Of a stretch of DNA of 64,000 bases, positions 1,080-37,069 are shown piece by piece (within the stretch, counting starts at the first letter, position 1; every line of letters begins with the position of its first letter). Source of the stretch: an uncultured virus (IMG/VR IMGVR_UViG_3300028173_000001) (lineage: Duplodnaviria; Heunggongvirae; Uroviricota; Caudoviricetes); IMG/VR virus record IMGVR_UViG_3300028173_000001. One strand, written 5' to 3'. The translations under genes and the position numbers were made by a program. The notes beneath the pieces were generated by a model. The model made no database searches. It saw only the letters and a list, made by a program, of their open reading frames with translations, and had not been told where the DNA came from.

Positions 1080-2624
1080 ATGATTATAATTTGCACAGCA
1101 AGTGCCGACACATACATTACAGATAAAATTGTCAACGGCAATATTCGTGTGACCGATGCTAACGTCGGCCGAGCTTCGACATTGGATCTGTTTACACTTT
1201 ACAACGAAACGAAACTAGAAGGCACCGGAACCCAAACAGAGGTTTCCCGGGCACTGCTCAAGTTCGACCTATCACCGATTACTGAATTAACGTCGAGCAT
1301 TCTAAATCTGAATAGCGGTCGATTCTCGGCGACCCTAGAAATGAAGGACATCATGACAGGTCATGCTGTTCCTAGAAACTTTACATTGTCAGCATTTCCA
1401 TTGTCACAATCATTTGATGAAGGTGTTGGGATCGATACAGGAAGATTCAATGATGTAGACACAGCAAACTATGTCACCGCATCATACACAACTCAAAATA
1501 ACGTTTGGTTCACTAGTGGTGCTATGGCATCCGGCTTGTTGGGCTCGAATGACATCGACTACATTTCATCTGGAAATCTGTCCGATGGCAACGGCGTCGT
1601 TTCACTCGAGTATACACAAACATTTACGGAAGGAACTGAGGATCTTTCGATTGACGTAACAAAAATCGTCTCTGCGACTTTGGCAGGCATCATTCCGGAC
1701 AAAGGGCTACGCCTGTCCTTTACGGGTTCTGAGGAAAATGATTCTAAATCAAGGTTTGTCAAGCGATTTGCATCACGCCATGTGTCAAACCCACTCCTTC
1801 GTCCAAGATTGGTGGTAAGGTTCGACGATACGATTTATGACAATCATCAAAATTTCTATTTTGACACCTCAGGAACATTGTTTTTGCAGAATTACAACCA
1901 GTCATCTTTGTCTAATCTGGTGAGCGGTTCCGGGTTGACCGACGTTTCAGGTGCGAATTGCTTCGTACTAAAACTAGACTACGGCAGGTTCAATTTTTCA
2001 GTGACAGGAAGTCAACACACCCAGGGCTCGGCAGCTTCAAATGTTACGGGCTTATATTCAGCATCCTTTGCATTGGCATCTGTGAATGACGGACTGTATG
2101 ACAAATCAAAGAAAATCTCAGAGTTGATTGCGAAAAATGGTGAAGTAACATTCACGACGTATTGGCAGTCATCTGACTTCTCTGTTGCTTATCATACAGG
2201 CAGTTTGGTTATGAAACGTGCCGACCGAAGAGCCGGCAATTTTATCTCAAGGGAACCACAGATTGTTGTAACCAACGCGTCACCGGATTACAGTGTCCAC
2301 GACACGGTACGATTCAGGCTATTTGGAAGAGACCTTGAGGCTGAAGAAGATGCACCAAGAAAACGAAAATATTCACGGAAGTCTGTTATCTATGATAGAA
2401 TATACTACCAGGTTGTGGATCGTGTCACTGAGAAGGTCATACTGAAATATGACGACAAGAATGATTCAACCCGGGTTTCGACAGACTCGAACGGCATGTT
2501 TTTTGATTTCAAGATGCAGGCACTCCTTCCTGGTCGATCATACGCTTTTGATTTTTACATAATTGAAAGAGGTTCAAGTTATTTGACTCGAGACCGAGGC
2601 ACGGTTTTTACGGTAAGAGGATAA
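1080..2624 (+). CDS. Virion structural protein (DNRLRE-like N-terminal domain)
   Basis: ADTYIT...SRALLKFDL and PLLRPRLVVRFDD motifs; directly follows the baseplate wedge gene. Confidence 0.55.
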   Translation: MIIICTASADTYITDKIVNGNIRVTDANVGRASTLDLFTLYNETKLEGTGTQTEVSRALLKFDLSPITELTSSILNLNSGRFSATLEMKDIMTGHAVPRNFTLSAFPLSQSFDEGVGIDTGRFNDVDTANYVTASYTTQNNVWFTSGAMASGLLGSNDIDYISSGNLSDGNGVVSLEYTQTFTEGTEDLSIDVTKIVSATLAGIIPDKGLRLSFTGSEENDSKSRFVKRFASRHVSNPLLRPRLVVRFDDTIYDNHQNFYFDTSGTLFLQNYNQSSLSNLVSGSGLTDVSGANCFVLKLDYGRFNFSVTGSQHTQGSAASNVTGLYSASFALASVNDGLYDKSKKISELIAKNGEVTFTTYWQSSDFSVAYHTGSLVMKRADRRAGNFISREPQIVVTNASPDYSVHDTVRFRLFGRDLEAEEDAPRKRKYSRKSVIYDRIYYQVVDRVTEKVILKYDDKNDSTRVSTDSNGMFFDFKMQALLPGRSYAFDFYIIERGSSYLTRDRGTVFTVRG

Positions 2625-2625
2625 A

Positions 2626-5600
2626 ATGTCAAGAGATCGTAACATCCTAGCGGGAAACTTATTGTTTCGACCAGGAATTGTCCGAACTAAACGTCCGGCG
2701 GCTCCAGTTAGGTCGATGACGCTGAACGATGCCGGAAATACGAGATTGAGCCTAACCGGGTCATTCAGGTACGACTCACCGGGATCTGCATTGAAGAGCT
2801 CCCAACAATTATTCGTTGATTGGTCTGACTTCGCGAATCATACATTCTTCAATTCGGCTGAAGCCAAAGTTCAAAAAGCTTTCGACAAAATCATCAATAA
2901 GTTCCCATTTGATGGAACAAGAACTGAATTCAATGAGTTCGTGGATGGGTTGTCGGGCTTCGAAAAGTATGTGCTGGACGAATTTCCAAAACATACAGGT
3001 TATTTGGCATTCAGCGGTTCAAGCTCTCCGACATCACCGGGAACATATATCAACGTCCTTGATTTCAAGGGCACACATTCGCCGGTGCTTTCGAAAGACC
3101 CGACCGGCCGATCAGTGTTGGATCCCGGGACGAAGTCGTTTACGACTGAATTCTACGTTTATGTCCCAAGCGGTTCAACAAATGATTGTCAGGTCATAAC
3201 TCAAAAACTGAGCGGAAGCAATGGCATATCGCATGTTCTGTCATCCTCAGCAGCTATGACTAGCCCAAATGGAACCGTAAACATTCAAACAATGATCCGT
3301 TCAGGTTCAATGATGCTGTCTGCATCGATGGAAATCAACAAGGGAGAATTTGTTCACTGCGCGTCTGTTTTCGATAAGGTATCTTCACCGGGCCAGATTA
3401 GGTTGTATCGTAATGCCGAGCTAATTTCCTCAAGTACCGTGGCCGCTATCGGCGAAATAGACTTCAAGACGTCACCACTCACGATTGGTAGCGGCTCGGC
3501 ACACGATTTTGGATATTTTGAATTTGTTCCTGTTGAAACACTAAGCGGCGCATTGGATGAGGTAAGGGTTTGGAACACACCACGAACCCAAGACGAGCTG
3601 CAAAAATATCGATTTTTGGATGTGTTTGCACAGGACAACCTTCAATTGCTTTACAGGTTCAACGAGCCTTCCGGTTCATTTGCGGGAGGCGGTTCTGCCC
3701 TTGTTTTGGATCACAGCAGCAATGCTCTTCATTCGACTGTCCAGAACTTCTCAATTGGTTTACGAAACACCGGAACGTTTGGATCTGCCCCGGTATCGGG
3801 CGAAAATTCATTGGTTTCGACTGTTTTGTTTCCATCATTCGCCGGTGTTACTTCGTTGAATGCTGACTTATTGACATCAGCATCAAATTACGATTACAGC
3901 AACCCAAACCTTGTCACTCGACTGATTCCCCCACATTATCTTAGGGAGGCTGCAGAAGCGGAAGGCTACGAAACGGCGAAGGCTGATGTTGGCGACGCAA
4001 TTAGCTCAAGGTATGACCAGCCAGGCGGTGCTCGAGTAGGCCAGCCCCAAATTATTGCAGGACTCTTGTACACCTTCGCCGAGACATTCGATGAATTGAA
4101 AATGTTCATTGATGAGTTCAAACGACTACTAAAGGTCGACGTTTTGTCACAAGACGTAATATCAGACCAGCTCCTTCCGTGGCTGGGAAGCTATTATGGA
4201 ATTGCAATGCCAAACTTCTTCAGTGGGGCATCAATTGACCAGCTTCTTGACGGAAAAGACATCAGGAATGATCGACTAAACACAACTGCTTTGCAGGCGG
4301 TTCAAAATACACTCTGGCGAAGAATATTCTCTGATTTGCCATTCATTTTGTCAACAAGAGGAACCCACTCATCAATTCGTTCTCTTTTAGCCAACATGGG
4401 AATAAACCCAGATGGCCCAATTAGGATTAGGGAATTCGGTGGCTCAAAATATAGAAATCTAGGTGATTCGTACATCCGCCGACATGAAATTGCAGCGATG
4501 CTTGATATGAGTGGTTCACTCGGGGCTCCGGGAACATTGAGTGCCCAAGGGGTTGATTCCGCGAGACCACTGATTTCAGGCTCATATCTATCGGGTTCTA
4601 GAAGTGAACCAGGGTTGCCTCTAATGGCCGGAAGTCTCGTGGGTGGAGTATCCAACAACGAATCAGACGGGTTGTACACATCAGGGTCCTGGACCTTCGA
4701 GAGTACCTATAAATTCGATAACAAGTCAACACATTTTCCCACCCAGAGTTTGGCACGATTGCACACCACCGGAACTGATGCATCTGCGGCAAATCACGGC
4801 GTGCTATTCAATCTGGTTGCCTTCGAGCCGAGCGTAACTAGATCGACGACCGGCAGCTTAAGCTTCTATGGTCGCCCATCAAGCGGATCAACAGCTCCTA
4901 CACTTCATTTGCAGCTCACGGGTGTGAACGTTTTCGATGGACAAAAGTGGCAGGTTTCCTTTGGACGACACAGGAATGATTTCATTTCTTCCCATGTATC
5001 ATCTTCATATTTCCTTCGAGCGGGCAAGTTTACTCCCGCGGGCCTTGAAGAATTTATGACGACGGCGAGCTATTTTGACGAGGGTTCAAGCGACGCCCTC
5101 GAAAACATTGCGGAATACAACACAAGCGGTGCCTTTGCGGTGATCGGCAGCCAAAGCCTGAATGTTTCAACGAATAACTTCCTGAATACAACAACATCAC
5201 CGTCATTTTCGAGAGTGACCGATTTCTCAGGAAAAACGTCAGGTATTCGATTCTGGAGTAAAGGTTTGTCCCCTGCGGAATCGAAAACACATGCCAAGAA
5301 CTTCAAATCATTGGGTGTGACAGATCCAGAGACAAATTTCAACTTCGTGACAACATCGACAGGATCCTTTGCAAGAATTAGGCAGGACGTTTCGATGCAT
5401 CAAATCGTAACGAAGTCGGATGCCTCAGGAAATGTTGCGTTATTTGATTTCTCACAAAACAGTCTGACATTTGGAGCATCAGGCTTCCAGGCTAGCACCG
5501 AGGTCATAAAACCAGAACGTTTTGATTTCGATGTGTTGTCACCAAATTTCCAGGCTGGCGAAAACCCAAATAAGGTACGAATTAGAAGTTACCTGAATGA

Positions 5601-6096
5601 AGAAACGGCAGAGAAATTTGATGCTTCACTTGCTCCATTGCATGAGATAAACCAGTCAGAAGAACCTCATGATGATAAACGCGTCGCCATCGAGATTTCA
5701 CTCGTCCAGGCGCTGAATGAAGACATCATGAATATCTTTTCAACGTTGAATGCATTGGACAACCTGATAGGAAGTCCTGAGTTGGTATTTTCACAAGAGT
5801 ACCCGAACTTGAGGAACCTGCGAAGGGTGTATTTCAATAGACTCACCGAACGGATTCACATCCAGTCGTTCTTTGAGTTCTTCAAATGGTTTGACGATAC
5901 GGTTGGCACATTGTTGGAGCAAATGCTTCCGAGCGATTCAATCTTCTTGGGAACGAGCTATATCATTGAATCACATGCACTCGAGCGCCCGAAGTTCTCA
6001 TACAAGTACTACGATATGTATTTGGGGGTGAATGATAGAGGCGGAAAAGAAACAATCCTGATGCAGCAAATCGTCGGAACGATAAGGAAAATGTGA
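2626..6096 (+). CDS. Large baseplate/tail protein with LamG (concanavalin A-like) domains
   Basis: SFTTEFYV, SGALDEVRVWNTPRT, LLYRFNE LamG pattern; LPFILSTRGTHSSIRSLL resembles a wedge/tail protein I-like segment. Confidence 0.65.
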   Translation: MSRDRNILAGNLLFRPGIVRTKRPAAPVRSMTLNDAGNTRLSLTGSFRYDSPGSALKSSQQLFVDWSDFANHTFFNSAEAKVQKAFDKIINKFPFDGTRTEFNEFVDGLSGFEKYVLDEFPKHTGYLAFSGSSSPTSPGTYINVLDFKGTHSPVLSKDPTGRSVLDPGTKSFTTEFYVYVPSGSTNDCQVITQKLSGSNGISHVLSSSAAMTSPNGTVNIQTMIRSGSMMLSASMEINKGEFVHCASVFDKVSSPGQIRLYRNAELISSSTVAAIGEIDFKTSPLTIGSGSAHDFGYFEFVPVETLSGALDEVRVWNTPRTQDELQKYRFLDVFAQDNLQLLYRFNEPSGSFAGGGSALVLDHSSNALHSTVQNFSIGLRNTGTFGSAPVSGENSLVSTVLFPSFAGVTSLNADLLTSASNYDYSNPNLVTRLIPPHYLREAAEAEGYETAKADVGDAISSRYDQPGGARVGQPQIIAGLLYTFAETFDELKMFIDEFKRLLKVDVLSQDVISDQLLPWLGSYYGIAMPNFFSGASIDQLLDGKDIRNDRLNTTALQAVQNTLWRRIFSDLPFILSTRGTHSSIRSLLANMGINPDGPIRIREFGGSKYRNLGDSYIRRHEIAAMLDMSGSLGAPGTLSAQGVDSARPLISGSYLSGSRSEPGLPLMAGSLVGGVSNNESDGLYTSGSWTFESTYKFDNKSTHFPTQSLARLHTTGTDASAANHGVLFNLVAFEPSVTRSTTGSLSFYGRPSSGSTAPTLHLQLTGVNVFDGQKWQVSFGRHRNDFISSHVSSSYFLRAGKFTPAGLEEFMTTASYFDEGSSDALENIAEYNTSGAFAVIGSQSLNVSTNNFLNTTTSPSFSRVTDFSGKTSGIRFWSKGLSPAESKTHAKNFKSLGVTDPETNFNFVTTSTGSFARIRQDVSMHQIVTKSDASGNVALFDFSQNSLTFGASGFQASTEVIKPERFDFDVLSPNFQAGENPNKVRIRSYLNEETAEKFDASLAPLHEINQSEEPHDDKRVAIEISLVQALNEDIMNIFSTLNALDNLIGSPELVFSQEYPNLRNLRRVYFNRLTERIHIQSFFEFFKWFDDTVGTLLEQMLPSDSIFLGTSYIIESHALERPKFSYKYYDMYLGVNDRGGKETILMQQIVGTIRKM

Positions 6097-29677: not shown

Positions 29678-30676
29678 ATGATCATAGAAATAAAACAACT
29701 TCCAAGAAAAAGACCGGGCGCTCCTGGTAATCCACCAACGGTTGTAGTCATCAAATGTGATATTTGTGGTTCGACGTTTGAGCGTGCTGGAAAATATAGA
29801 ACTGCATACGTAAGAGCAAAAATACATCGATGTTCAAAAAAATGTACATACGGTCATCGTAAGTCTGACGGCTTCGGCGGTCACGGTGCAGCAATAACAA
29901 AAGCAAACTGCAGAGATTGCGGAAAACTAATTGAGCGATGGACGTCTCAGGCTGCCCCAAATGAAATTCATGGAAGCTTTTGCAAACCTCAATGTTACGG
30001 ATCATGGAAATCAAAAAACCCAGAAACTTATGCGATTTGGCATGAGAAAAGTATGACGCCAGAAGCCCGTGCAAATATTAGTCGTACAATTCGTAAAAAG
30101 CAAAAAGAAGGGACATATGTTCACCCATGGACAGGTCGAAAGCATAGCGAAGAATCAAAAAAGAAAATGAGCGCCGAGCAACGTAATTCAAATCGCTCGA
30201 AGGGAAAAAACAATCCGATGTATGGAAAGTGCCATACTGTTGAATCTAAGGCAATTATGTCGCTAAAACGTGCAGAAATGATGTTAGCTGGCAAAATAAA
30301 GCCGTACGGAAAAAATCGCCAAGCCGGTGAACACGTTTCACCAAAAACAGGCAAGAAAATGTTCTATCGTTCCGGTTGGGAACTAATAACAATGAACTTT
30401 CTCGACAATGATGATAATGTAGCATCATATGGATATGAAACAATTAAAATTCCATATCGTTACAATGGGGAAAAAAGGTGGTATATTCCTGATTTTTTGG
30501 TTGAATTTAGTGACGGAACAAGACAAATATGGGAAGTGAAACCGTCAATGTTTATAAACACAGAAAAAGTTCAACAAAAAGCATTAGCATCCCGAAAATT
30601 CTGTGAGTCTGAAGGGATCAACGAATATCGATTCATAACAGAACACGATTTACGCGAACTAAAAATTATGTCATAA
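29678..30676 (+). CDS. Homing-type endonuclease (TnsA-like PD-(D/E)xK C-terminal domain, Zn fingers, NUMOD3)
   Basis: CxxC motifs, KHSEESKKKMS, NPMYGK, YRSGWE, WYIPDFLV, WEVKP; AT-rich relative to its neighbours. Confidence 0.75.
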   Translation: MIIEIKQLPRKRPGAPGNPPTVVVIKCDICGSTFERAGKYRTAYVRAKIHRCSKKCTYGHRKSDGFGGHGAAITKANCRDCGKLIERWTSQAAPNEIHGSFCKPQCYGSWKSKNPETYAIWHEKSMTPEARANISRTIRKKQKEGTYVHPWTGRKHSEESKKKMSAEQRNSNRSKGKNNPMYGKCHTVESKAIMSLKRAEMMLAGKIKPYGKNRQAGEHVSPKTGKKMFYRSGWELITMNFLDNDDNVASYGYETIKIPYRYNGEKRWYIPDFLVEFSDGTRQIWEVKPSMFINTEKVQQKALASRKFCESEGINEYRFITEHDLRELKIMS

Positions 30677-30683
30677 TACGTGT

Positions 30684-31274
30684 ATGAAAGTTTTAGGATT
30701 GGACGTTTCAACGTCAAACGTGGGTGTTTGTGTAATTGACACATCGTTACCAATGGAAGATCGTGTTGTCATTGCCGACGGTATTTCGATGACAAAAACA
30801 AAAGGTCTCTATACGAAGTCGTGCATGTTGAGGGAACATCTTTCCGATGTGGCGTACGATCACGAGATTGACGTGATTGTTGTTGAGGAGGCTCTCCAGG
30901 CGTTTAGAAGCAGGATGTCTTCTGCTGGGACGTTGGCGAAGCTAAACCGGTTCAACGGTATTGCTAGTTACCTCGCTCGTTCAATTTTTGATTGCCCATT
31001 ATACCTGGCCAATGTGATTTCCACGAGGAAAGCCGTCGGGTGCTTCGTCAACAGGAAACTACCCCTCAACACGAAAGACCAAGTTTTTGAGTGGGTGAAG
31101 GTTCAACCAGACATGATTTCATACCCATGGCCCACAAAAGTACTCAAAAGCGGGAAGAATAAGGGTATCACACGTAATGAGGCAGTTTGTTTTGACATCG
31201 CCGATGCATATGTTGTTGCTCGTTTTGGCGCCGATGTTTTGAAAACCACAGACATTAGTGATACAAATGTATAG
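30684..31274 (+). CDS. RuvC-like Holliday junction resolvase
   Basis: VLGLDVSTSNVG, IVVEE, DIADAYVVA. Confidence 0.75.
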   Translation: MKVLGLDVSTSNVGVCVIDTSLPMEDRVVIADGISMTKTKGLYTKSCMLREHLSDVAYDHEIDVIVVEEALQAFRSRMSSAGTLAKLNRFNGIASYLARSIFDCPLYLANVISTRKAVGCFVNRKLPLNTKDQVFEWVKVQPDMISYPWPTKVLKSGKNKGITRNEAVCFDIADAYVVARFGADVLKTTDISDTNV

Positions 31275-32233
31275 TGGGCTTAGAAATATCAAAAAAGACT
31301 GCTTTATTTGAAGCTGCGTTTGGATCTGGTTACATGGAAACTGGGAAGGTAAACTTCCACGTTTCCTGTCCAAGTTGCAAAGATGGCCGAAAAAATAAGA
31401 AAAAGCTATATATTGAGCTGGCAACCGGCTGGTATCATTGTTGGGTATGCGGCACCTCTGGCAAAAACATCAACTTTTTGTTTCGCAAGTTCGCTAAAAA
31501 TTATGCCCCTCGATGCGCACAATTATTTCATGAAGACCGGTCATATACAGACCAGCAGGCTCTCGAAGAGATCATTCTGCCGCCGGAACTGCCGGAAGAT
31601 TCAGTTTTGTTAATGTCCGCGAAAAATGATCCCGACGCAAATGATGTAAAAAGATACCTAAAAGCCCGTGGCCTGACGAAAATGGATATGTATAGATGGC
31701 GCATATGTGTGTCAAATGAGTTCAAGTTTCGCCGCAAGGCAATCTTCCCGTCATTTACAGCCTCAGGCCAGCTCAACTACTACACGGCGAGGTGCATCGA
31801 TGAAACAAAATTCAAATACAAAAATGCTGACGTGCCGAAACGAACGGTCATTTTTAACGAGTTCGACATCAACTGGGATGAACCGATCATTCTTGTGGAA
31901 GGTGTGTTCGATGCAGTAAAATGTCCGGAGAATACAGTTCCTGTGTTAGGTTCTTCGCTAGCATCAGGCAGTAATTTATTTATGAGGTTGAAGCAACATG
32001 AAAGTACGGTTATCGTGGCGTTTGATGAAGATGCAGAAAGCAGAATTCATGACGTATGTCGCCGTTTATCTCTTGCCGGTTGTTCCGTTTATAACTTAAC
32101 GATCAAGGGTAACGACCTAGGCAGCAGAACGAAAAGCGATGTTCGTGACATTTTGGCGACGACGGCACGGTGGACTCCAGTTTCTTTTCTCAATCACAAG
32201 ATTTCAAAAATCAAGAGCGGTTCTATACTATGA
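31274..32233 (+). CDS. DNA primase (Zn finger + TOPRIM)
   Basis: CPSC, HCWVCG, YLKARG, LVEGVFDA, VAFDEDA. Confidence 0.85.
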   Translation: MGLEISKKTALFEAAFGSGYMETGKVNFHVSCPSCKDGRKNKKKLYIELATGWYHCWVCGTSGKNINFLFRKFAKNYAPRCAQLFHEDRSYTDQQALEEIILPPELPEDSVLLMSAKNDPDANDVKRYLKARGLTKMDMYRWRICVSNEFKFRRKAIFPSFTASGQLNYYTARCIDETKFKYKNADVPKRTVIFNEFDINWDEPIILVEGVFDAVKCPENTVPVLGSSLASGSNLFMRLKQHESTVIVAFDEDAESRIHDVCRRLSLAGCSVYNLTIKGNDLGSRTKSDVRDILATTARWTPVSFLNHKISKIKSGSIL

Positions 32234-32292
32234 CAAAAATTTGCCACATGGCCGATGTCAAGATACTTATATCTGCGAGGTATCTAAAATGA
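32230..32292 (+). pseudogene. Orphaned original 5' end of the Mre11-Rad50 gene (MTKICHMADV + 10 extra aa)
   Basis: ATGA-coupled to the primase stop; first ten codons match the N-terminus found again at 33091. Confidence 0.7.
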
Positions 32293-33098
32293 TAGAATGT
32301 CAGCTATGCCACAAAAAATTTGGAATTATTTCTCCTTCTCACTTGAAGTTTAAACATAATATGGGGGTTGCCGAATATCGGCGATTGTATGGTGATGTCA
32401 TGACAAGTGAAAAGAAGAAAGAAGTGAGCAAAAAAATTAAAGAAAATCACTGGTCAAAAAAACCAAAAGAAGAAACTAAGAAAATTCGAAAAGCTATTTC
32501 GAGTAATGGCAGTCGGGTCATGAAACAAATCAATGAAACCGGTAAGGCGTTTAGGTGGACAAAAAAACACGCAAAAGAGTACTGGACTGACGACAGAAAA
32601 GACAAGCATAGCAGTGCCTGCACCGGGAAAACAGTTTCGAATAAAACAAGGCAACTAATAAAAGAAAACCATTGGTCAAAAAAGAGCGAAAAAGAATTTG
32701 ATGAAATAATTGAGAAGATTTTTATAAAATCCGGTCAAATGAAAAACACAGCAAGAGGCTGGTTTTATTCGAAGAAAGCTGGTGAACGAATGTATTATAT
32801 GTCGTCATACGAACTGCGCAGATTGCGATTTCTTGAATCATGTGATGAAGTTGTTAAGTTTACAACGTCGCACGGCATAAAAATAAAATATAGTCATGAC
32901 GGATCCGAACATATATACATACCGGATATACTAGTAGAAAGCTGTTCCGGAAGTACATGCATTGAAGAAATCAAAGGGTTTATAAGGGACCCAGAAAAAG
33001 TAGATGCAAAAAAAAGAGCTGCAATAGGTTTTTGTAATAACAAGAATTGGACGTATGTTATGATTTTTGAAAATAACCTCGAGGTGTCACATTACTAA
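32289..33098 (+). CDS. Homing-type endonuclease (TnsA-like PD-(D/E)xK domain, N-terminal Zn finger)
   Basis: CQLC..HLKFKH, YMSSYE, IYIPDILV, EEIKG; internal repeat IKENHWSKK twice; AT-rich. Confidence 0.75.
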   Translation: MIECQLCHKKFGIISPSHLKFKHNMGVAEYRRLYGDVMTSEKKKEVSKKIKENHWSKKPKEETKKIRKAISSNGSRVMKQINETGKAFRWTKKHAKEYWTDDRKDKHSSACTGKTVSNKTRQLIKENHWSKKSEKEFDEIIEKIFIKSGQMKNTARGWFYSKKAGERMYYMSSYELRRLRFLESCDEVVKFTTSHGIKIKYSHDGSEHIYIPDILVESCSGSTCIEEIKGFIRDPEKVDAKKRAAIGFCNNKNWTYVMIFENNLEVSHY

Positions 33099-36000
33099 GA
33101 TCTGTCATTTAAGCGATATACACTGGCGCTCTCTTTCTAGGCACGATGAATATCGCACAGCGTTTGAAGACGCATTTTCAAAGTTGCATACTTTGAAACC
33201 AGACATTATTTTCATCGCCGGTGACATCGTTCACTCAAAAACCCAAGGCATTTCCCCTGAACTGATTTCAAATTTGACATGGTGGTTCAACGGTTTGGCT
33301 GAAATAGCAGAGGTCCACGTGACCCTTGGCAACCATGACGGCCTTATTTTGAATCCAGACAGAGAGGATGCAATCTCACCGATCCTCGCTGCAATCGACA
33401 ATCCCAGAATCAAGCTATACAAAAAGTCCGGCACATATCCTATGAATGATGAGTGCAACATTTGTGTTTTTTCATGTTTCGATGAAGCCGGATGGCCGGA
33501 TGTGAAGCCTGAAGAAGGAAAGATCAACATTGCGACGTTCCATGGCGTCGTCCACAATTCGGAAACAGATGCCGCCTGGGCTCTTGAAAGTGATGTCAAT
33601 TTGAAGTTCTTTGAAGGGTATGATTTCGTCATGCTAGGTGACATTCACAAGCAACAGATTCTTGACAAGGCCGGTCGGATCAGATTTAGCGGCAGCGCAA
33701 TTCAACAAAACTACGCCGAGACCCCTGGAAAGGGTTTCCTAATGTGGGACATCAAATCGAAAGATGATTTTGATGTGAAGCATGTCGAGATCAAACATGA
33801 GCATCCATTCGTGACTTTGGATTACGACGATGATCTAGACAAGCTGCAATCTGAAATGGAAGACTATCCATCGTCAGCGCACGTGAGAGTCAAGATTCAG
33901 AGTGCCGCAACCCAAGCCGACATGTCACAAATTCGCGCAGCAATAAAAAGCGTCTCCGGTCCAACCGAAATTGTTTTCAAACGAGAGGTAGATGCTGCAA
34001 CATTAGAACTTTCAGATGAACTCCTTGATGAAACAATAAAACTCGACAGCTTCGACGCGGTAAACAATCTAATCAAAGAGTTCTATGCCAACGCAAAATT
34101 GGACGATGAAACAATAAATGAGATGGCGAAGACCTTATCAGGCGTTTGGAAGTCTGCAAAACTCGCTGATAACTCAACGTCCGGTCGGTGGTCTCTCCGT
34201 CGAATGGAGTTTGATAATATATTCGGGTACGGTGAAGGAAACATTGTAAACTTTGAGTCCGCAAGCGGTATTACGGGCATTTTTGGTAAGAATCGGTCAG
34301 GAAAATCATCTTTGTGTGGTGCAGCAACTTACGCATTATTCAACGGTACAGATCGTGGCGCAATGAAGAACATGCACATTGTGAATGCAAGAAAAGGATA
34401 TTGTGTTGCCAAGGCTCTCATCTCAAAGAAGGGAAAAAACTACCTTGTAGAGCGTCAGACTGTAAAAAAGACGACGAAAAAAGGAGATCACCATGCAGTG
34501 ACCCACCTGAACCTTTTTGAATCCGATGAAACAGGAACACCCCTGAAGGATATTTCTGAGGAGCAACGCAGAGAAACCGAAAAGATATTGCGTGGGCTGG
34601 TTGGAACCTTGGACGACTTCCTTTTGACGACGTTGGCATCCCAAGGCGACATCAATCGTTTTGTGGACCAAGGTTCTGCAACAAGAAAATCAATCCTGGC
34701 TAAATTCCTGAGGCTCGATATCCTTGACACGCTATTTGAATTGGTCAAGCAAGATTTGTCCATCGCAAAGAAAATGCTCAAATCTGCACCTGAACAACAG
34801 TTCGATGCAAAGATTGTTGATAAGACGGCAAAGGTAAAAGCGAGAATCGCGGAGCGTACTGCCGAATCTGACTCCCTTGGAAAGATCACGAGGATTTTGA
34901 ACAACATAAACTCTGCATTGGACTCACAAACAAAAGAAATGTATGTCCAGACTGAAATTGACGATCAGGCTGAGAAAATCAGAAAGGCAAATGAAGATCG
35001 TGACGAGTTTATGGAAACCATGTCTGTCGCTTCACTCGAGCGTGACGTAATCAATGCCACAATTACTGAGATGAAAACCAAGATTCAGGACATCGATTTT
35101 GCCAAACTCAAAAAGAAAAAGGTTGCGATTGTTGATTCTGAGCACGGGATCATTGTGGCAACAGGCGAAATTGAAACAAAGTCGTCCAAGCTTCGGGCAG
35201 ACAAACGAGCTGTAAAAAAGCTAAGCGATGTGCCCTGTGCTGACACTTTTCCGCAATGCAAGTACATAATCAGCGCCAAGAAAGCCGAAAAGAACATGCT
35301 CGAGAAAAAAGATGATTTGCTAGCATCGAAGAAACGAGTCGCCGCATTGAAGTCATCTCTAAAGAAATTACTCAAAGAAAACGTCGATGAGAAATTGGCC
35401 CAGAAACAAGAGCATGATGAAAAACTGTTCTTATTGGCACAAAGCAAGTCAAAACTGAGCATGAAAATACTCGGGTTGGAGAGTCGTATTTCAAACGTCG
35501 AGCGAGATTTAGCCGTTGACAATTCAATGTTGTCACGAATGAAAATCAATCTATGCTCAACTGAAAGTGCCAAGGAACGCAAGATTCTGGTGGCTAAGAA
35601 GAAGCTTGCAACTGAAAAACTGCAAGAGGCAAAGTTACGAATCCAAACCCTGAGTGAACGAATCGGCCTGTTGACATCAGAGGTGAAGCGCCTTCGAACA
35701 GATAAAATCCAATTCGAGAAAAACAACCAACAGGTTCAAATATTGACGCTCTTGGGCAAGGCACTGAGTCGTAATGGAATCCCGCTCCAGATTGTCAAGC
35801 GTAAGTTGCCGGTAATCAATGTCGAGATTGCAAACATCCTCCAGGGGATTACCGGTTTCACTGTTGAGCTGACCGTGGACGATTCGGCAGGTATGGACAT
35901 CATCCTAAACTACGGCGACTCCAAACGAGTGATCGAGTGCTGTAGCGGCATGGAAAAAATGATGTCATCCTTGGCAATTCGTACGGCTTTGGTTCGAGTT

Positions 36001-36219
36001 TCGAGTCTTCCAAAAGCTGATGTCCTGATTATTGATGAAGGGTTTGGTGCTCTCGACGCGACAAATGTAGAAGCCTGTACAACTCTGCTCAGGAGTTTAA
36101 CAAAGACGTTCAGGCTGATTTTAATAATATCACACGTCGACACGGTGAAAGACGTCGTCGACAACATCATTGAGATTTCAACAACCAAGGGCCATGATGC
36201 CCAGGTCAAATTTTTATAG
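33091..36219 (+). CDS. Fused Mre11/SbcD nuclease - Rad50/SbcC ATPase (gp47-gp46-like), probable ATT start
   Basis: SDIH, AGDIVH, GNHD, LGDIH; Walker A GKNRSGKSS, signature CSGMEK, IIDEGFGALD, IISH; long coiled coil. Confidence 0.9.
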   Translation: MTKICHLSDIHWRSLSRHDEYRTAFEDAFSKLHTLKPDIIFIAGDIVHSKTQGISPELISNLTWWFNGLAEIAEVHVTLGNHDGLILNPDREDAISPILAAIDNPRIKLYKKSGTYPMNDECNICVFSCFDEAGWPDVKPEEGKINIATFHGVVHNSETDAAWALESDVNLKFFEGYDFVMLGDIHKQQILDKAGRIRFSGSAIQQNYAETPGKGFLMWDIKSKDDFDVKHVEIKHEHPFVTLDYDDDLDKLQSEMEDYPSSAHVRVKIQSAATQADMSQIRAAIKSVSGPTEIVFKREVDAATLELSDELLDETIKLDSFDAVNNLIKEFYANAKLDDETINEMAKTLSGVWKSAKLADNSTSGRWSLRRMEFDNIFGYGEGNIVNFESASGITGIFGKNRSGKSSLCGAATYALFNGTDRGAMKNMHIVNARKGYCVAKALISKKGKNYLVERQTVKKTTKKGDHHAVTHLNLFESDETGTPLKDISEEQRRETEKILRGLVGTLDDFLLTTLASQGDINRFVDQGSATRKSILAKFLRLDILDTLFELVKQDLSIAKKMLKSAPEQQFDAKIVDKTAKVKARIAERTAESDSLGKITRILNNINSALDSQTKEMYVQTEIDDQAEKIRKANEDRDEFMETMSVASLERDVINATITEMKTKIQDIDFAKLKKKKVAIVDSEHGIIVATGEIETKSSKLRADKRAVKKLSDVPCADTFPQCKYIISAKKAEKNMLEKKDDLLASKKRVAALKSSLKKLLKENVDEKLAQKQEHDEKLFLLAQSKSKLSMKILGLESRISNVERDLAVDNSMLSRMKINLCSTESAKERKILVAKKKLATEKLQEAKLRIQTLSERIGLLTSEVKRLRTDKIQFEKNNQQVQILTLLGKALSRNGIPLQIVKRKLPVINVEIANILQGITGFTVELTVDDSAGMDIILNYGDSKRVIECCSGMEKMMSSLAIRTALVRVSSLPKADVLIIDEGFGALDATNVEACTTLLRSLTKTFRLILIISHVDTVKDVVDNIIEISTTKGHDAQVKFL

Positions 36220-36226
36220 GAAAATA

Positions 36227-37069
36227 ATGCAACAAAATCTAGCAAACAAAAAAGAAGCAATCACCGACATCATTACAGCACCACTTGAGTTTGATGAAGG
36301 GGTTGCATTCTACAACGCCGGGCTGATGAAGCACAGCGTTGCCAAACGACAGGCAGATCAGGAAGGAATCTATGATGGGTTGTTCGGGGCATTTGAGCGT
36401 ACCTGGGGAGCGCTACATAGTTTCAACGCCATGGAAGATCATAAGAATGATGTGATTCTAGAAATGGGCTGCGCGGAAATTCCAATCTAAAACGCATACA
36501 AAATGCAGCGAACATACCCGAACTACATCGGAGTGGACATTAGGCGAGACTATCTCATTTCATCTAAGTTCAAAAACAGAAAAAATGTGTTGGCACTTTG
36601 TGCAGACATCACCAAGCCACTTCCAATCAAGGCAGGAACAATTTCCGCAGTCGTCCTGAGCGAGACTGTGGAACATCTTTCATACGAACAAAACCTGCTA
36701 TTCTTCAAAGAGGCGTTTCGTTTGTTGAAGCCAGGTGGGAAGGTTCTGATCTCGTCGCCTATGAACACAGAAGATCGTGAATTCCACAACGTCGAGAAGG
36801 AAAAGAATCTCGGTCATGTTTTCTTCTGGGCAGCAGAAAAATTTGAAGAAGAGATGCTAAAGCTCGGGTTCAGCGATGTAGATAAGCAATGGGGTTATTC
36901 AATCTCAACGAAGATAAGGGTATCGGAAATCAAGAAAGCCCTTCCACCGGCGGTGGGTAAGTTCATCGAGGATATTAGTAGGATGTACGGTTCTAGAGTC
37001 GCAAGGGCGGTTGCTTTGTCAGCACCAGGTGTTACAAACGGCGGATGTCGTTTTACACTTACAAAATGA
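36227..37069 (+). pseudogene. Class I SAM-dependent methyltransferase interrupted by an in-frame TAA at 36488-36490
   Basis: VILEMGCAE before the stop; YIGVDI, CADIT, ETVEHL, RLLKPGG after it, all in one frame. Confidence 0.7.

Follow-up and report, generated by a model that had tools for sequence, protein, structure and literature searches.

Homing endonucleases are usually considered to persist in essential genes only by way of an intron or an intein. The usual alternatives are an endonuclease located between genes or a target gene split into two working halves. In this study, we analyzed a stretch of 64,000 nucleotides (hereafter the window) from the uncultured Caudoviricetes virus IMGVR_UViG_3300028173_000001, in which an endonuclease cassette interrupts a fused mre11-rad50 gene near its 5′ end. 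Judging from the sequence, both the architecture and the logic of gene rescue make it likely that this cassette, with neither intron nor intein, rebuilds the start of mre11-rad50. The design itself, in which an endonuclease element supplies a new end for its target gene and strands the previous one, has already been published in yeast, in mitochondria and partly in MobA of T4.

The closest described systems include the WHO elements, which are homing endonuclease cassettes at FBA1 in Torulaspora and Lachancea yeasts (Coughlan et al. 2020, PMC7282813). In the mitochondria of Endoconidiophora resinifera, C-terminal duplications of atp6 and cob lie beside GIY-YIG and LAGLIDADG open reading frames (ORFs) (PMC6279837), and in those of Tremella fuciformis N-terminal duplications are found near endonuclease ORFs (PMC7315562). 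The MobA/gene 60 cassette of T4-like phages carries a region, HomR, that has 67-81% DNA identity to host codons (bioRxiv 10.1101/2022.08.31.505936). Phage genes in pieces include mobE in Aeh1 nrdA, mobA in the T4 topoisomerase and seg in gene 43 (Edgell et al. 2010, PMC2988022). A term search of that review of T4-type mobile elements gave split genes only, and the word stem 'duplicat' occurred 0 times in the text searched.

In the window, the cassette comprises 861 bp (32260..33120; this and all window features below are on the plus strand) and lies between codons 10 and 11 of mre11-rad50, within the codons of nuclease motif I (D-x-H). As delimited by blastn against L003, the closest endonuclease-free relative, it consists of a leader, an endonuclease gene and a replacement copy of codons 1-10; the 30-nt duplication leaves its boundaries free to shift by as much as 30 nt. 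Upstream, a DNA primase gene (31274..32233; PHROG 47, E = 1.2e-35) ends with a TGA that overlaps, as ATGA, the ATG of a short stub ORF of 20 codons (32230..32292). Codons 1-10 of the stub (32230-32259) read MTKICHMADV, after which the leader is read as KILISARYLK. The stub TGA in turn overlaps the endonuclease ATG at 32289, forming a second ATGA. The leader is 29 nt long, is the sole part of the cassette outside ORFs and has its own ribosome-binding site, a GAGG core at 32277..32280, 8 nt 5′ of the endonuclease ATG. The endonuclease gene (32289..33098, 269 codons) stops at TAA 33096-33098, and its 3′ end overlaps the replacement copy (33091..33120, ITKICHLSDI) by 8 nt. The replacement copy has ATT where homologues have Met1, and it continues as ITKICHLSDI-HWR into the gene for the fused Mre11-Rad50 (SbcD-SbcC-like) nuclease-ATPase (33091..36219), which has 1042 codons counted from ATT and is in the frame of the stub. 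The protein matched Pfam Metallophos (E = 2.6e-11), SMC_N and the SbcC Walker B model, as well as PHROG 77 (E = 5e-47). All the letters quoted in the initial annotation were present base for base. Its element started at the stub ATG 32230 rather than at the endonuclease ATG; its dead-ending stub stops at TGA 32290-32292, and the GAGGTG that it placed 4 nt upstream of ATT lies at 33081..33086, where it is made of the L-E-V codons of the endonuclease.

The stub and the replacement copy encode similar peptides in different spellings. The third base differs in every one of codons 1-6, and only 19 of 36 nt are identical over 12 codons. A six-frame scan of the whole 318-kb genome found a single 10-mer, apart from ITKICHLSDI itself, that scored at least 36 (BLOSUM62) against this peptide. 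It was the stub, with a score of 44 compared with a self-score of 53.

The uninterrupted allele was found in related viruses. Among 26 viral loci related to Mre11-Rad50, 16 include the N-terminus; one of these is a twin of the window and 15 have no endonuclease, namely L003 and 14 further relatives with the primase/mre11-rad50 junction. The gene order in seven relatives (tblastn) was structural gene, RuvC, primase and mre11-rad50, with the primase directly 5′ of mre11-rad50 in 7/7 and ending at its start. L003 is 80% identical in nucleotides and 89% in amino acids, and its mre11-rad50 is one uninterrupted gene with an ATG directly after the primase. The first 21 nt of this gene are identical to the stub and the next 18 nt are identical to the downstream copy in the window. 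By blastn, L003 1594-1620 aligned to both 32230-32256 and 33091-33117, and no L003 match was found to the 861 bp between the two copies. Over ~60 nt 5′ of the stub there was one mismatch with L003, although the primase gene as a whole is ~82% identical. The start codons of 25 endonuclease-free alleles were ATG in 24 cases, TTG in one and ATT in none, and always lay 4-7 codons before the motif-I His. The contiguous gene start that the initial annotation had predicted for endonuclease-free phages thus exists. Empty alleles that already carry the ATT or the recoded sequence, which it had named as contrary evidence, were not seen: none of the 25 had ATT, and L003 has the stub's spelling of codons 1-7.

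A second pair of empty and filled alleles is formed by L088/89 and L037. L088/89 have 71% amino acid identity to L037 in Mre11-Rad50, share its upstream gene and lack the endonuclease. They start with MKIAH, which is the stub type of L037, and the working copy of L037 starts with MRICH. We also scanned metagenome contigs for an 18-nt pattern that the window shares with L003; of the 11 matches, only those in the records of these two were relevant. The 21-nt stub pattern was found in viral contigs only in a window-like contig and in L003.

The unusual spelling is that of the replacement copy, for which the comparison with L003 seems suggestive rather than overwhelming. Between the window gene and L003, 45% of third positions differ overall, and codons 1-7 form the sole run of seven consecutive third-base differences in 1042 codons. 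The replacement copy has 8 mismatches with L003 in its first 21 nt, and the stub is identical at 21/21. This contrast with the stub is a stronger signal than the divergence of the replacement copy itself. In an alignment judged by eye, the replacement copy was also further from L010 than the stub was.

The arrangement is not confined to the window. A profile search with the endonuclease family recovered 31 viral loci, which fell into three groups. At 11 of them, representing eight lineages including the window, the endonuclease lies immediately 5′ of mre11-rad50, with its stop overlapping the start of that gene (ATGA or TTGA). Another five have the endonuclease within mre11-rad50 at about residue 191-199, and the gene is split in two; the remaining 15 are other contexts or fragments. 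In the start-adjoining group, identity to the window endonuclease was 33-39%, and the insertion point was conserved within about one codon of the motif I D-x-H/Q codons. Across this group, the stub is clear in four of the eight lineages. Besides the window, these are L037/38 (stub MKIAHLADIQ, 93 nt before the endonuclease; working copy MRICHLADIQ), L039 (stub MKIAHLADI followed by a stop at codon 10; working copy MKIAHLADIQ, with six synonymous differences) and L058/59 (stub VIFHIADIH; working copy QIVHIADIH). A probable decayed stub lies right after the primase stop in L035, where 14 of 2000 shuffles scored as well. A possible one lies in L036 at the offset of L037 and L039, with the ATG lost and an internal stop, and there 1908 of 2000 shuffles were as good. 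No stub was found in L034 or L064/65, and the DNA-level test was not significant for L034 or L064. The earlier reading is extended here from one locus to an endonuclease family tied to mre11-rad50.

Signs of decay and loss were also found. P0001, a protein cluster representative on a 1110-nt contig, is the window endonuclease, otherwise identical, minus 31 residues of the catalytic core, including the D and the E. Since it has lost the PD...ExK core, it points to a decaying copy in the population. The deletion is in frame and leaves the ORF open to the same stop, although retrieval was biased, as frameshifted variants would escape it. In L091 (2381-2536), the endonuclease is gone, and the last ~35 nt of its 3′ end remain together with cassette-type start codons like those of L039; this seems to be a hit-and-run footprint. 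The presence of the cassette is patchy relative to host-gene similarity. Patchy presence and relics together agree with the cycle of gain, decay and loss expected of homing endonuclease genes.

Compared with the known systems, the locus resembles the WHO elements in several respects. In both, an endonuclease gene stands beside a full-length essential gene with an element-supplied end, which is enzyme-resistant in WHO and presumably so here. The previous gene end persists as a fragment on the far side of the endonuclease gene, splicing of RNA or protein plays no part, both the fragments and the endonuclease genes undergo decay, and the target gene is chimeric. The structural parts expected of an end-replacing element were found: a stub (32230-32259), a replacement (33091-33120) and an empty allele with the stub's spelling. 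However, WHO elements replace ~400 bp of the 3′ end, and the phage cassette is the mirror image, replacing just 10 codons of the 5′ end. It must in addition supply a ribosome-binding site and a start codon. The WHO enzymes are intein-derived LAGLIDADG proteins of the yeast nucleus, whereas the enzyme here is a TnsA-like PD-(D/E)xK protein of a phage, and no tandem clusters were seen here.

The fungal mitochondrial ORFs share with this locus a partial duplicate of a gene end beside an endonuclease ORF, read as an exchange of foreign fragments during mobility. Those cases are organellar, their duplicates are mostly much longer, several of the Tremella cases are annotated as introns, and none needs a new prokaryotic translation start. 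The atp6 hybrid gene of Allomyces is a further mitochondrial example.

MobA is likewise a phage homing endonuclease that, with neither an intron nor an intein, interrupts a metal-binding catalytic motif in an essential DNA enzyme. Its insert also brings a differently spelled region homologous to host codons, its new N-terminal coding part also overlaps the endonuclease ORF out of frame (8-32 nt there, 8 nt here), and endonuclease-less relics occur as well. In contrast, the MobA arrangement yields two working polypeptides with added tails and a 50-nt translational bypass, whereas here there is one ORF of 1042 codons with no bypass or coding gap. The parental codons were deleted there and are left here as a useless 10-codon stub, and MobA is an HNH enzyme rather than a TnsA-like PD-(D/E)xK one. 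As in the genes in pieces, a free-standing endonuclease lies inside a coding region for phage replication or repair, and the same endonuclease family does split mre11-rad50 around residue 195 in five loci. Unlike those genes, the window mre11-rad50 is restarted with a duplicated N-terminus instead of being split into two functional parts. In the literature covered, which included few subscription journals, neither a homing endonuclease in a phage mre11, rad50 or sbcCD gene nor a phage start-replacing cassette with a stub was described.

The following course of events would account for the locus. In a mixed infection, the enzyme would cut the uninterrupted allele near codons 10/11. The break would be repaired from the cassette-bearing genome, with the primase and the stub providing homology on the left and the codons from 11 onward on the right. 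Both homologies reach right up to the break, so that the cassette could be copied in much as an intron is, which would leave the first ten codons of the recipient stranded as a new stub. Full-length Mre11-Rad50 would then be made from the new, cassette-supplied start, and the old first ten codons, coupled to the primase stop, would persist as a stub that hands ribosomes to the endonuclease ORF. The filled allele would escape cutting because its site is split and its rebuilt copy is spelled differently. Initiation at ATT 33091 would be aided by the GAGG and by ribosomes that reach the stop codon of the endonuclease 5 nt downstream. The core of the initial annotation, an endonuclease cassette that rebuilds a gene start, stood up in our analysis, while the use of ATT and a protective role of recoding are less firm parts of it.

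Several observations weigh against this interpretation or parts of it. Only one close empty allele was found, L003, and it is 20% diverged. L034 and L064/65 have no stub, which implies that the endonuclease can sit at this position stub-less. At least 8 mismatches with L003 were present in 4.9% of the 21-nt windows of the gene, so the excess divergence of the replacement codons is modest. In L037, 18 identical bases adjoin the junction in both copies, and codons 2 and 4 are the only ones that differ; therefore, heavy recoding is no rule. The window endonuclease matched Pfam PF08722 with E = 1.4e-4 and 22.8 bits, below the gathering cut-off of 26.5. As for translation, ATT is a rare start codon whereas the TTG at 33067 is canonical, and the products of L058 and L064 appear N-terminally extended by ~12 residues.

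The origin of the different spelling is where an alternative survives best. The initial annotation held that recoding protects the element from self-cleavage and from excision. The logic is plausible, since a rebuilt copy spelled like the empty allele would recreate the target at the right junction, so that some difference must be maintained, and the longest run of third-base differences in the window sits exactly at the replacement codons. The differently spelled codons might, however, be cargo inherited from another lineage, with illegitimate repair at the first invasion fusing a broken recipient gene to a foreign endonuclease and gene start, and with immunity arising mainly from the splitting of the site by the insertion. 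We regard this as a serious contender that falls just short of being favored, and the two explanations are not exclusive of each other. The 18 bases still shared by the copies in L037 fit inheritance more easily than protection. L039 and the relic L091 share ATC / CTY / GAC / CAG choices that the stub and the empty relatives lack, and these cassette-type spellings travel with the 3′ end of the endonuclease. Moreover, L037 and L036 have I-C-H where all nine empty relatives and the relic L091 have I-A-H. The same origin was proposed for the WHO elements (PMC7282813) and for the HomR of MobA, which is 67-81% identical to its parent (bioRxiv 10.1101/2022.08.31.505936). Inherited cargo is thus as possible a source of the recoding as the protective role first suggested.

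The second question concerns where Mre11-Rad50 begins. On sequence criteria, ATT 33091 is slightly favored as the main start. It lies 5 codons before the motif-I His, as in the seven closest endonuclease-free relatives (L003-L008 and L010), and GAGG ends 6 nt before it, in a genome where the GAGG-to-ATG spacing peaks at 5-6 nt. Genome-wide, a Shine-Dalgarno core was present at -18..-4 in 84/180 long ORFs compared with 17/180 control windows. L034 and L035 have GAGGT and TGAGGA, respectively, encoded by the endonuclease at the same place before ATG and TTG. No stable RNA fold was found in the start region 33050-33140 (z = +1.14), and the endonuclease stop 5 nt 3′ of ATT would allow reinitiation. 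It is also possible, although rather less likely, that the same cassette starts Mre11-Rad50 at the in-frame TTG 33067..33069, which would add eight residues (MKITSRCH) before ITKICH and turn ATT into an internal Ile codon. TTG is a standard start codon from which the ORF runs uninterrupted. In L058, the Met1 position lacks a canonical start and a TTG lies 17 codons before the His, and L064 has a start 16 codons before the His. Nevertheless, the 18 nt before TTG 33067 contain no GGAG, GAGG or AGGA core, whereas ATT is preceded by GAGG at the modal spacing of 6 nt. In the 25 endonuclease-free alleles, the start is never more than seven codons before the His, and L034 and L035 start at the Met1-homologous codon behind the same endonuclease-encoded Shine-Dalgarno sequence. 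Use of both starts, or of others, takes up the small remainder. The ATT start of the initial annotation thus gains from its Met1 position and its Shine-Dalgarno match, with the TTG as a live rival.

A start codon other than ATG may have a meaning of its own. The rebuilt start lacks ATG in three of eight cassette-bearing lineages compared with one of 25 empty alleles (one-sided Fisher test, P = 0.036, or 0.048 without near-duplicates, with relatedness uncorrected). It is conceivable, though doubtful, that the weak ATT makes the synthesis of Mre11-Rad50 depend on ribosomes that finish the endonuclease, by termination-reinitiation, so that the gene is held hostage. The excess of non-ATG starts and the in-frame nature of the deletion in P0001 are hints in this direction, none of them decisive. 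If true, a frameshift, a nonsense mutation or a clean deletion of the endonuclease would be selected against, which would slow the usual decay.

It seems very improbable that the stub serves as a short first exon, with the endonuclease housed in a self-splicing intron and an mRNA that joins ~32259 to ~33121. The frame would be kept if 861 bp were removed, and the ICP1 terminase (PMC10448857) offers a precedent for a short unannotated N-terminal exon beside a homing endonuclease. However, Rfam intron models gave no match in the window (E ≤10) or in seven other filled loci (E ≤1), so that neither a group I nor a group II intron is indicated, and all but 29 nt of the insert belong to ORFs. The N-terminus is already encoded in full by the downstream copy, which has its own Shine-Dalgarno sequence. 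In addition, the stubs of L036, L039 and L034 are decayed or gone while the gene is intact; as the stub decays and the gene stays whole, the stub is not an exon. The description of the element as non-splicing in the initial annotation agrees with these results. An intein was ruled out, since the endonuclease is read in a different frame and a stop codon closes the stub frame at 32290-32292.

Although the record was assembled from a metagenome, a false duplication by misassembly or chimerism is hardly conceivable, as L002, an independent contig in IMG/VR, shows 100% identity both in the mre11-rad50 protein match and in the preceding 90 nt, contigs of 2012 and 2016 runs bridge both junctions with 0 differences, and unrelated contigs show the same layout. 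With 0 differences, the ATT junction was covered by contigs of three other runs (X5 record 12, X6 record 15 and X13 record 5) and the stub junction by X13 record 1 and X6 record 14; this support comes from contigs, not reads, at a depth of 2-5. Since L002 and the contigs of the other runs agree, ATT is not a one-off assembly error. No joint without the cassette was found in the contigs of four runs, a result that is uninformative on expression and on the absence of empty alleles.

The endonuclease itself is modular, with a Ros-type zinc finger (CxxC...HxxxxH) at the N-terminus, NHWSKK (NUMOD3-like) repeats and, at the C-terminus, a TnsA-like PD-(D/E)xK domain. Among the aligned family members, PF08722 was matched in 29/29 (E ≤1e-3, best 3.1e-11), NUMOD3 in seven and ROS_MUCR in six. 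Residues E175, D213, E227 and K229 are invariant over 29 sequences, including the window protein. Against the PDB, the family profile matched TnsA N-terminal domain chains (E = 0.0095 and 0.041). As a prediction from sequence, the TnsA-like assignment is solid at the level of the family. The closest homologues of the window endonuclease, P0002-P0009, are 39-50% identical to it. A profile scan of genome contigs with the endonuclease gave 158 pattern matches, with no relative among them.

Paralogous endonucleases occur in the same genome. One TnsA-like/NUMOD3 paralogue of 332 codons (29678-30676, plus strand; NUMOD3 E = 7e-13, PF08722 E = 2.7e-12) lies in the window between an 831-codon structural gene and a RuvC-like gene, which abut in 7/7 relatives. 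It was checked for a duplicated gene end and none was found; it is a plain intergenic insertion. Two further TnsA-like paralogues lie outside the window, at genome C1 76859-77431 (tblastn E = 7e-15) and 89267-89827 (E = 5e-11). The ORF at 76859-77431 shares 14 nt with the start of the gene that follows it, which begins MKVNRKRAMITGGLGFIGSHL.

The loci with an endonuclease near residue 195 are L061, L072, L076, L081 and L082. The insertion lies just after the GDIH motif (e.g. L061 1636-2289 / 2321-3241 / 3238-5721), leaving pieces of ~217-228 and ~820-830 codons, each with extra tails. These tails look conserved between lineages, with ID..DL..Y at the end of piece 1 and a basic M.KK.K.. at the beginning of piece 2, and are reminiscent of those of the MobA-split topoisomerase. 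Another deviation was observed in L064 (2811-2880; also in L065), where the mre11-rad50 ORF after the endonuclease begins MITILKSDIQ-KYKW-IVHCGDIH. Its first ten residues resemble a degenerate extra copy of the N-terminus fused in frame before the real one. In L064/65, the cassette may have landed at the start codon instead of at codon 10.

In L036, L037 and L039, a conserved leader starts right after stub codon 10, ~62-70 nt before the endonuclease ATG; the leader of the window has only 29 nt. The leader of L036 holds a TATAAATA-like box, which we take to resemble a T4-type late promoter. In L036-L039 and L085-L094, motif I reads A-D-I/V-Q, with Gln in place of the metal-binding His that is found in the window and in most relatives (A-D-x-H).

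The virus record comprises 318 kb, with a CheckV completeness of 93%, and the window is its minus strand. The virus is a marine jumbo phage present in many seawater metagenome runs; 20 DNA runs and no RNA run were listed as containing it. A promoter and terminator scan of 31200-33400 gave nothing useful above shuffles, and 31274-34500 had no match in phage GenBank by blastn with a distant setting. Downstream, the segment 36213-37065, between mre11-rad50 and the next shared gene, is absent from L003; ORFs of 106 codons (36170-36490) and 188 codons (36503-37069) lie in this region.

These results point to a further phage solution to the problem of entering an essential gene, backed by a pair of filled and empty alleles and by recurrence in several lineages: the endonuclease inserts where the catalytic codons are most conserved, close to the gene start, and supplies a spare start. 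For annotation, this means that gene callers will pick the wrong start or overlook a non-ATG start, and will call the stub a tiny hypothetical gene. The endonuclease family, TnsA-like and uncharacterized, might be useful for tool discovery, as its target is predictable, namely the Mre11 motif I codons, with a second site at about residue 195. The targeted gene encodes the break-resection enzyme of the phage itself, a type of enzyme on which recombinational repair depends in T4. For evolution, the first codons of an essential gene would become horizontally mobile and chimeric.

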